Source: a virus (taxonomy: Duplodnaviria; Heunggongvirae; Uroviricota; Caudoviricetes). Taken from it: a DNA stretch of 64,000 nucleotides. Positions 42,613 to 58,246 of the stretch are shown one piece after another (the stretch's first letter is position 1; each line of letters begins with the position of its first letter). The stretch is taken from positions 202,295-266,294 of the IMG/VR virus record IMGVR_UViG_3300003310_000099, one strand, 5' to 3'. Both the position numbers and the translations under genes were made by a program. The notes beneath the pieces are model-generated. The model was not told the DNA's origin and did not search any database. It saw only the letters and a program-made list of their open reading frames with translations.

Positions 42613-43107
42613 TGTATCACGAATTCCGAAACACGAATCGTAGCGGTTGGAAGTACACTTACACTGGTAAGGAATTACTTCCTTTTGCCAAGCTCTGTCT
42701 TGCCAACTACTACAAGGCAGAGTCTCAGGCGCGGGCAGAAATGTCCAAGCTGATTCAGGATATGCGTCGTAATCAGGATGATCCTGCACTGGTTCAGTGC
42801 CGTAAGGACATTGAATCTAATGGGTCTATGCGGGAAGAGTTGATGGTGTTCGTGCATGAGTTCACTCGTCAACCCGACCGTGAATATTATCTTGCTTTGG
42901 GCGATGTGGTATTCTTCGGGATGCTGGATACTCCAGAGGAGTTGATGAAGTAATGGAAGCCTCATTTTTAATGGCTATAATGACAATAGCATTGTCGTTG
43001 GTAGTTTTCAAAATGTTGGGGCTAATTTCAAAAGTTCTGAAAAAGAAGCCATCCCTTTATCAAGGGATTCCAGTCGAGTATTTGGAAAAATACCCGTTGA
43101 ACTGAAA

Positions 43108-43124
43108 GCTTAGCTGTACCTAGT
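43108..43124 (+). repeat. Dispersed element copy 6
   Basis: GCTTAGCTGTACCTAGT. Confidence 0.9.
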
Positions 43125-43126
43125 GG

Positions 43127-43155
43127 TTTACAAGTGTTGTTTTTCGTGGTAAAGT
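43127..43155 (+). promoter_or_regulatory. sigma70-like promoter (extended -10)
   Basis: TTTACA-N17-TAAAGT with TG. Confidence 0.6.
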
Positions 43156-43175: not shown

Positions 43176-43481
43176 ATGGACAGTGATCTGTTGCAGTATC
43201 TTCGTAAGGGTAGTCAGCGAGTGCGGGCTGGTGTTCTGCTTGCCCGCAAGGTCAAGAAGAACAAGAAGGTCAAGGTGCTTGTCGGCTGGAGTAAGTGCAA
43301 GCTTACCGTCGATAAGTTCGACCCTGTTCGCGGCAAGGAAATTGCTGAAGCCCGTATTCAGCTTCGTCTGGAAGGCGATAATCGTAAGGTCAAGGTGCCG
43401 CATTCCATCAAGGCAAAGGTGGATGAATTCGTGCAGCGTGCGAAGCGGTATTACAAGACTGAGAACGTCAAGGTGGTCTAA
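43176..43481 (+). CDS. basic hypothetical protein
   Basis: GGAGG SD; GWSKC..DKFD..GKEIA; strong AAG bias. Confidence 0.65.
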   Translation: MDSDLLQYLRKGSQRVRAGVLLARKVKKNKKVKVLVGWSKCKLTVDKFDPVRGKEIAEARIQLRLEGDNRKVKVPHSIKAKVDEFVQRAKRYYKTENVKVV

Positions 43482-43484
43482 AAT

Positions 43485-43598
43485 TAACCTTGTGCATATT
43501 CTGCTGGTGCAAGCCCAGAGTCGTGAAACTATCCTTGCCTTACGGCAGGCGATAAGCTAGTCTATATGGCGCGAAAGCCAAGAATATGCACAAGGTTA
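43485..43598 (+). ncRNA. Candidate structured RNA (multi-stem junction closed by 18-bp helix)
   Basis: TAACCTTGTGCATATTCT / AGAATATGCACAAGGTTA enclosing 4 small hairpins. Confidence 0.6.
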
Positions 43599-44431
43599 GC
43601 ACTTATGAAAAAAGCTAGATTTGTTTTGGATTACTGAGGCTTAAATGCTCGCCTTACAGTTCGTAAGGTATTGCCATTTTTATTTTCCCATGCGGCTGCT
43701 GTATTCGATAGTGAACCAGCAGTTAGAAAAGCAATACAGGCAATAAGCAACGATGAGCATTATGGAAAGCCCGTTCCCCCTAGAGAGGTTTGGTTTGTTT
43801 TAGAGAAAATTCGCGGTGATTTGAAAGATAAAAATATAGAATTCTTAGTACCGTCACCAGAAGAAACGCATGGAACATGGGGATTGGCAAGCTAATCAGG
43901 AACTTAAAATGTACCCTAAAAAGTCAAAGAAAATTGAAATTGAACTGCCAGAAGAACCGCCTTCTGGCGGCTATGCTGCTTGTCCTAGCGGTGATAATGA
44001 CTACGATGATGCAATGAAAGAATGGCAGAAAAATGTAAATGCCGTTATTCTTGCTGCTATTCCCCGTGGCTATAATCTCAAGTCGTGTGAAACCAAAAAG
44101 GTTCAGATTGTGCGTCACTATGCCACAATCGTTGTGGAGGAACAGTAATGGAAAGACCATTGCATCGTGAGGTGTATGTATTTAATGCGGAAGACAACGG
44201 TGGCGAGTCATTGACTCTTACTACTGATTATTTTGATAATGGCGATGCCGCACATGGTCTGCCTGATGGTATCTTCACAAACCAAAAGCTAACTCTTATG
44301 AGTTATGGTAATTCTGCAAGTTTTGAACTTTGCGGAACCGTTCTCACCCCTGAAAATCTTCGGGAACTGGCTGATATTCTTGAAAATGGTGAGAAGTTGG
44401 CACTGAGCAAGGTAGTAAAGGTGGTTAAGTA

Positions 44432-44758: not shown

Positions 44759-44921
44759 ATTTTTTAATGGAGAAGACTAATGGAAGACCATGAGAAGTGG
44801 TTGCAAGAAAATGAAGAAGCTCGAAAACTAGTTGAGCTAGGCTTATCCCAAGCGAAGGCGGGACAATTTGCAGAGAACCCACCAGACTTGGAAAAGGATT
44901 TAGAAGATTTGGAAGAGTAAA

Positions 44922-58107: not shown

Positions 58108-58227
58108 AGGACGAATCGTGAGGCGCTAATTACTGTAGTTTACAGCCCCGTTCGTTTTGATTAGTGAAAACCAAGGGTCGTGAGGCGAATAATTACAATT
58201 AGTTTACAGCCCCGCCCTTGGTTTTCA
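58108..58227 (+). repeat. Tandem duplicated stem-loop motif (candidate RNA element)
   Basis: Two copies of TCGTGAGGCG..TAATTAC..TAGTTTACAGCCCCG, each closed by a different stem. Confidence 0.75.
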
Positions 58228-58246
58228 TAATTTTCATGGAGTTGAA

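Follow-up and report, generated by a model that had tools for sequence, protein, structure and literature searches.

A conserved hairpin behind a huge-phage gene, with an optional RNA insert in its loop

In the genome of a huge phage, an 18-bp helix (P1) follows the stop codon of a gene for a small, very basic protein and encloses 78 nt that relatives of the phage carry whole, in part, or hardly at all. Comparison of homologous loci shows that P1 is a selected helix of the sense-strand RNA, placed behind a conserved gene and one of a class of post-gene hairpins that spans the genome. The enclosed interior is shown to be an optional, non-coding loop insert of distinct composition, which is strongly conserved in its carriers and has been deleted repeatedly in other lineages. 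The element as a whole is probably, if far from certainly, a conserved post-gene mRNA hairpin with an accessory, dispensable nested RNA domain.

A sense-strand helix behind a conserved gene

The stretch analysed (the window, 64,000 nt) belongs to a huge phage. The 373-kb record from which it comes is labelled a provirus; it is part of the 596,394-bp JGI contig Ga0071082_100015 (146 of 146 bases identical over the stretch compared), which is the ground for the huge-phage origin. The label may be a trimming artefact of a phage genome of about 600 kb. The sole relative in the phage database is the 595-kb uncultured phage LR756511. Genes of the record are small and lie nearly all on the + strand.

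Homologues of the basic protein (50–91% identical) all lie on huge-phage-like metagenomic contigs. The source contig's own gene call is a 125-aa GTG-start ORF in another frame, which enters the element (window 43183–43560; L026:814–1191); comparison of the homologues identifies the 101-aa frame as the true gene. As the original prediction had stated, this gene is preceded by both a dispersed phage motif (43104–43133) and a sigma70-like promoter (43127–43155). The features of the locus are collected in Table 1.

Table 1. Features in and around the element, in window coordinates
Feature	Position	Strand	Remark
Dispersed phage motif GAAAGCTTAGCTGTACCTAGT, then sigma70-like TTTACA-17-TAAAGT	43104–43155	+	Upstream of the basic-protein gene
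Gene for 101-aa very basic protein, P0001 family	43176–43481	+	Conserved; no Pfam domain
P1 5′ arm of closing helix	43485–43502	+	TAACCTTGTGCATATTCT; 10 of 18 pairs compensated on both sides
Optional 78-nt interior, nested in P1 apical loop	43503–43580	+	GC 54%, genome 41%
H1, CUGG-UGCAAGC-CCAG	43504–43518	+	T-loop-type loop; invariant where present; look-alike of twister-sister SL4
AGT-CGTGAA-ACT sub-palindrome	43519–43530	+	3 bp
H3, 10-bp hairpin	43530–43554	+	Bulged C, UUAC loop
H4, UGGC-GYGAAA-GCCA	43567–43580	+	Abuts P1 3′ arm
P1 3′ arm of closing helix	43581–43598	+	No U-tract after it in the window
Extra 74-aa ORF in variable slot	43671–43895	+	Between element and next conserved gene
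Next conserved gene, P0003 family	43909–44148	+	ATG start at 43909 inferred from homologues
Dispersed motif copies in the window	16152, 16357, 17641, 41913, 43104, 44918, 50352, 51727, 59120, 61213, 63597		

The arms of P1 had been described as a perfect 18-bp match, and they are exact reverse complements; such inverted repeats are expected by chance about 1e-4 times per 64 kb. The fold of a 136-nt stretch scores z = −5.85 against shuffles on the + strand and −4.34 on the − strand, and thermodynamic prediction in the window gives P1 and H3 a pairing probability of at least 0.97. A terminator scan of the window did not call the element, and a search within it for a sigma70-type promoter found none.

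Homologous loci were recovered by protein-based look-ups in independent metagenomic contigs. (W denotes the window and L-numbers the loci of relatives; L040 and L041 are the same locus from two samples.) An equivalent locus is present in nine independent contigs, and in all of them P1 begins 4–9 nt past the stop codon of the P0001-family gene. Pairing statistics were taken from a nine-sequence alignment (A5), in which 99.4% of P1 cells are paired and 10 of the 18 pairs show compensatory double changes; none of 500 shuffles reached the observed values, and with a one-column shift of the 3′ partner pairing falls to 36–42%. Seven P1 cells are G.U or U.G, which on the opposite strand would become A.C mismatches. 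The selected structure therefore lies in the + sense transcript.

Whether P1 also terminates transcription in the classic intrinsic manner is doubtful, since a U-tract after the stem is absent from the window, L009, and L045; one is present in L006 and L011 (UUUUCUU), and L044 is U-rich. The earlier judgement that the element is too elaborate for a simple terminator is borne out: the strong covariation of P1, and an interior conserved well beyond its flanks, make it a sense-strand structured RNA that exceeds a minimal terminator.

An optional interior

Lineages differ greatly in what P1 encloses. The interior is full length (77–78 nt) in W, L044, and L011. It measures 67 nt in L029, where an 11-nt deletion takes the 3′ half of H1; 68 nt in L040/41, through deletions of 2 and 8 nt that remove UG from the H1 loop and CGTTAAAC from the junction; and 31 nt in L042, where a 47-nt deletion leaves H4 and a 5′ stub. 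Elsewhere little is left: a 13-nt loop on an 18-bp stem in L009, with the interior almost gone; a 6-nt loop in L045 and L046, GGTG still being there (the L045 stem has 18 bp); and a 3-nt loop on a 14-bp stem in L006, followed by its U-tract. In the P0005 and P0007 contigs, known from gene calls only, a spacing of 53–59 nt implies no insert. Because the indels of 2, 8, 11, and 47 nt are not multiples of three, the interior is non-coding.

Among more distant relatives, the slot after the homologous gene is empty in L030. In L038 (IMGVR_UViG_3300014202_001569) it holds two tRNA-like sequences (L038:1544–1619 and L038:1626–1698), which score 22.6 and 26 bits against an Rfam tRNA threshold of 29 and are not called by ARAGORN. 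The same slot in L037 (IMGVR_UViG_3300037137_001027; L037:1508–1680) is taken up by some 170 nt of non-coding, GC-rich sequence, with TGTTAGGG...CCCTAACA as its closing arms; it has no Rfam match and is a candidate for another structured RNA.

All four sub-palindromes that the original prediction had listed between the arms are present. Their joint fold as a four-hairpin junction was not confirmed: in the window it is 2.6 kcal/mol less stable than the minimum free energy structure, the pairing probability is about 5% for H1 and for H4, and the AGT-CGTGAA-ACT hairpin is unsupported, being deleted in L040 and half deleted in L029. Predicted interior folds disagree among the homologues. H1 has lost its 3′ half in L042 as well as L029. 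H3 has undergone two wobble-making transitions (A>G and C>U), with a variable bulge and loop. The H4 stem is invariant in six homologues, its loop varying between C and U, and is the most persistent interior module, kept even in L042. No double compensatory change was found in H1, H3, or H4 across the nine sequences, nor in an RNAalifold alternative (P2 GCUGGU/GCUAGU; P3 GUCGU/GCGAU). Covariation, which had been proposed as a check, supports the closing helix, present as a plain hairpin in some relatives, but none of the interior helices. A tetraloop-to-junction pseudoknot (UUAC/GUGA) was rejected; it fits W and L011 and fails in L029.

T-loop modules, with U-G/U-N-R-A loops of the tRNA T-arm type, mediate tertiary docking in RNase P, riboswitches, and rRNA. 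The H1 loop UGCAA, with its G-C closing pair, fits the five-nucleotide T-loop pattern. The motif has been described as widely distributed (bioRxiv 10.1101/2022.12.26.521914).

The kept parts of the interior are about 95% identical regardless of flank divergence. Nucleotide identity with W is 94.8% for the gene and 94.9% for the interior in L044, 89.5% and 95.6% in L040, and 83.3% and 94.7% in L011. In the last pair 72 of 76 interior positions agree, set against 47–65% of third codon positions and 67–72% of arm positions; the binomial P for this excess runs from 0.003 to 5e-10, depending on the reference rate chosen. Of the eight point substitutions, some are transitions in H3 that wobble pairing accommodates, and the others lie in junction strands, loops, and bulges. 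This identity plateau and the RNA-tolerant sites of change argue for purifying selection on the kept interior, recent lateral origin being the alternative. The arm bases that flank the interior differ among carriers (TTCT/AGAA, CTCT/AGAG, and TTTT/AAAA), which argues against transfer of the interior by homologous recombination. Carriers lie on both sides of the clade in the gene tree, so there have been either several losses or several gains; the residual GGTG of L045 and the graded deletions favour loss.

Searches for the interior outside this locus were negative. The whole window has no Rfam match at gathering level; a local E-value search returned noise-level matches only (sn3060, Twister-sister, and group-II-D1D4-4), and the homologous loci gave only miRNA-like hairpin noise. 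Neither ARAGORN nor the Rfam tRNA model found a tRNA, tmRNA, or tRNA-like fold in the element, and a permuted-tRNA reading was rejected. A covariance model built from three copies found no further one when run on the 373-kb record and on four related huge-phage records, pattern scans for the interior found none in IMG/VR viral contigs, and blastn found no match among INPHARED phages. Fourteen matches in a pattern scan of JGI metagenomes are all unrelated, high-GC chance matches; an 18-mer of the most conserved block has only four chance matches in 185,579 prokaryote genomes. Besides the element itself, no complementarity of 11 nt or more, as would mark an antisense or seed target, was found in the phage genome. 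The nested domain is without a described counterpart in Rfam 15, and the hairpin itself is of a known kind. The suggestion that the interior may be a new motif still stands, as it matches no Rfam family; the element could be a new, narrowly distributed motif, seen in a handful of metagenomic huge-phage contigs.

Hairpins, motifs, and the order of the genome

Of 66 perfect hairpins in the 373-kb record whose stems reach 12 bp or more, 28 begin no more than 40 nt downstream of the stop codon of a + strand ORF, against a random expectation of 4.4 ± 2.0. Long post-stop hairpins are thus a general punctuation signal in this phage. The element, which begins 4 nt after a TAA, is placed as members of this class are. 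Other large examples lie outside the window, at G000:C1:143913–144024 (20 bp + 72 nt), 64570–64641 (19 bp + 34 nt), and 67491–67588 (12 bp + 74 nt); the interiors of these three are unrelated in sequence to the 78-nt interior.

The second genome-wide signal is the dispersed motif, with consensus A(A/T)A(G/C)CTTAGCTGTACC(G/A/T)AGT. Allowing one mismatch, CTTAGCTGTACC has 113 copies in the record, 111 of them on the + strand. The motif often ends 5–10 nt 5′ of an ATG that has no Shine-Dalgarno sequence, for example GTACCGAGTAAACCATG, and it resembles a promoter or start signal specific to this phage that yields near-leaderless mRNAs. After the hairpin the next copy is at 44918, with none between the hairpin and the downstream genes. 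Transcription must therefore read through, and the hairpin cannot be a strong terminator.

Those downstream genes are variable. Between the hairpin and the next conserved gene lies a slot (window 43599–43908; L029:193–402; L044:1139–1354; L042:960–1256; L045:1171–1455) that is empty in L009 and L011 and holds unrelated small ORFs in L029/L040, L044, L042, and L045. The hairpin thus marks a mosaic junction.

Two possible relations of the interior to other sequences of the genome were rejected. Its block GATAAGCTAGTCTATAT does not contain CTGTACC, which is invariant in the core of the dispersed promoter-like motif, so the interior is not a copy of that motif. A tandem motif at window 58108–58228 (core TCGTGAGGCG..TTAC..TAGTTTACAGCCCCG, with two different closing stems) shares with it the words TCGTGA, TTAC, and TAGTYTA, but is not matched by the covariance model of the interior, R1. 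(The second copy of the tandem motif has a 13-bp stem, z = −6.6.)

Explanations and comparison with known systems

On the preferred explanation, the 18-bp helix would be the local example of a phage-wide signal, a long hairpin of the sense transcript right after a stop codon. P1 would most likely act at the mRNA level by blocking 3′ exonucleases, by leaky termination, or by both, and would thereby separate the basic-protein gene from its variable downstream neighbours. The interior would form an accessory domain in the apical loop; its GYGAAA hairpin would stack on P1, next to one hairpin of T-loop type and one of 10 bp. In some lineages this domain may be kept by purifying selection, while small deletions remove it in many others; its absence from so many indicates that it is dispensable for the basic job of the hairpin. 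Where present, it might modulate the hairpin in cis or bind a phage or host factor. Against this explanation, the interior helices show no compensatory double change and their predicted folds disagree among homologues, roughly half of the lineages have interior deletions, an uncommon finding for an important RNA, and the high interior identity of distant carriers could come from recent lateral spread instead of selection. A bolder version seems doubtful to us: that the 78-nt interior is a new small functional RNA of huge phages, itself selected, which either binds a factor or acts as a decoy, or else has a new catalytic fold around the T-loop and GNRA-like hairpins. It would be nested in a terminator-type hairpin that is both its closing and its processing stem, and be gained or lost as an accessory "RNA moron".

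Four rivals were considered and ranked: a processed small RNA, a decaying selfish insertion, a site acting at the DNA level, and a ribozyme. The first, which we hold to be fairly unlikely, makes the interior a small RNA gene in its own right, with a product that might bind a factor or act as a decoy and with the hairpin as processing stem; P1 stacked on H4 (18 and 4 bp) would offer about 22 bp to RNase III, and a stable RNA of about 80–114 nt would act in trans. The identity plateau, which ignores flank divergence, suits a gene of this kind, as do the GC enrichment of the interior, its T-loop-type and GNRA-like loops (typical of compact folds), and the tRNA-like and GC-rich structured RNAs in the same slot of L038 and L037. 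The interior, however, shows no covariation, has no complementary target of at least 11 nt in the phage genome, suffers frequent and heterogeneous internal deletions, and is a single-copy sequence limited to one small clade. On the second rival, the interior would be the relic of a selfish or mobile insertion in the hairpin loop, spreading or converting between co-infecting relatives and then degenerating, with no phage function. We consider this quite unlikely. Its presence on both sides of the gene tree, the graded series of deletion derivatives, the W–L011 interior so much more similar than the flanks, the foreign-looking composition, and the position at a mosaic junction with variable downstream genes all accord with it. 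Against it, each genome has the interior only once; five huge-phage records and IMG/VR yielded no copy at another place, and an 18-mer of its most conserved block gave only chance matches in 185,579 prokaryote genomes. Neither terminal repeats belonging to the interior nor a target duplication nor an associated enzyme is present. Its distances mirror the flank tree, and the differing boundary bases would require recombination crossovers with almost no homology.

At the DNA level the element might be a folded recombination site at a cassette boundary, like an integron attC site, or a protein-binding palindrome. Arms that conserve structure and not sequence, a centre that varies from 3 to 78 nt, and a gene 3′ end followed by variable gene content are what such a site would show; yet the wobbles fit a sense-strand RNA, post-stop hairpins occur genome-wide with a strand bias, and no recombinase is linked. 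An attC site would have R″/R′ boxes (RYYYAAC ... GTTRRRY) and extrahelical bases; here L009, L011, and L006 lack the AAC...GTT core triplets, and the helix is perfect in the window, with no extrahelical base. The attC identity was rejected, and a DNA-level site of any kind seems very improbable. As for catalysis, the conserved residues of the twister-sister ribozyme lie in the SL4 loop and in L1, the P1–P2 internal loop that holds the C-A cleavage step (PMC5660989). The original prediction had seen a GUGCAAG loop of twister-sister type, and this much was right: H1 has exactly the loop that is conserved in SL4, and the junction strands are conserved. The ribozyme did not follow. The Rfam match (RF02681) covers only 15 nt, 43504–43518 against model positions 32–46, and scores 13.1 bits where the gathering score is 34; its E-value is 9.3 in the local search and, when this one family is run over the genome, 1.6. 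P1 has 18 uninterrupted pairs and a single G before H1, leaving no L1 and no P2; the SL4-like loop is intact in W, L044, and L011 but deleted or broken in L029, L040/41, and L042, and the junction strand J1/3 is deleted in L040/41. No other ribozyme family appears at E < 10. The element is not a known ribozyme and is not twister-sister, and self-cleavage by a variant or a new class is hardly to be expected.

Huge phages carry many unexplained non-coding features, and here one conserved gene-end hairpin comes as a natural series, from a 3-nt loop up to a conserved multi-hairpin domain of 78 nt. If the insert is functional, it would exemplify an accessory RNA module inside a terminator-type stem, and the deletion variants would provide natural controls. 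Even a functionless insert would leave the locus as a record of long post-stop hairpins that punctuate transcription units in this phage clade, and as a case in which a loop identical to the conserved loop of a ribozyme exists without the ribozyme.

The element shares with twister-sister the hairpin C-UGG-UGCAAGC-CCA-G, equal to the SL4 consensus, and the shape of a multi-helix junction closed by a long P1; it differs in lacking the L1 C-A cleavage site and P2, in a score far below threshold, and in not keeping the SL4-like hairpin. T-loop modules elsewhere dock with a partner; none can be assigned for H1, and ARAGORN and the Rfam tRNA model see no tRNA-like fold in the element. An integron attC site is likewise a structure-conserved hairpin at a gene 3′ end, with a variable centre and variable downstream genes, but the element is without conserved AAC/GTT boxes, extrahelical bases, or a linked integrase, and its signals are those of sense-strand RNA. 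Like ERIC, Correia/NEMIS, and REPIN sequences, it is palindromic, intergenic, transcribed, and some 115 nt long, and it has internal indel variants. Those repeats are dispersed, whereas the element is single copy at one orthologous locus; as the 373-kb record has it once and the four related huge-phage records lack it, a dispersed palindromic repeat or MITE was rejected.

There is a close likeness to the hairpins that follow genes in mRNA: intrinsic-terminator-like structures, REP-type stabilisers, and the RNase III sites of phage T7. The element is, as they are, a stable sense-strand hairpin a few nucleotides past a stop codon; it is kept by compensatory changes, gains a U-tract in L006 and L011, and lies within a multi-gene unit, where it could protect the 3′ end of the upstream cistron. 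It departs from them in its unusually long and perfect stem of 18 bp, in the missing U-tract in the window, and in the 78-nt domain carried in its loop.
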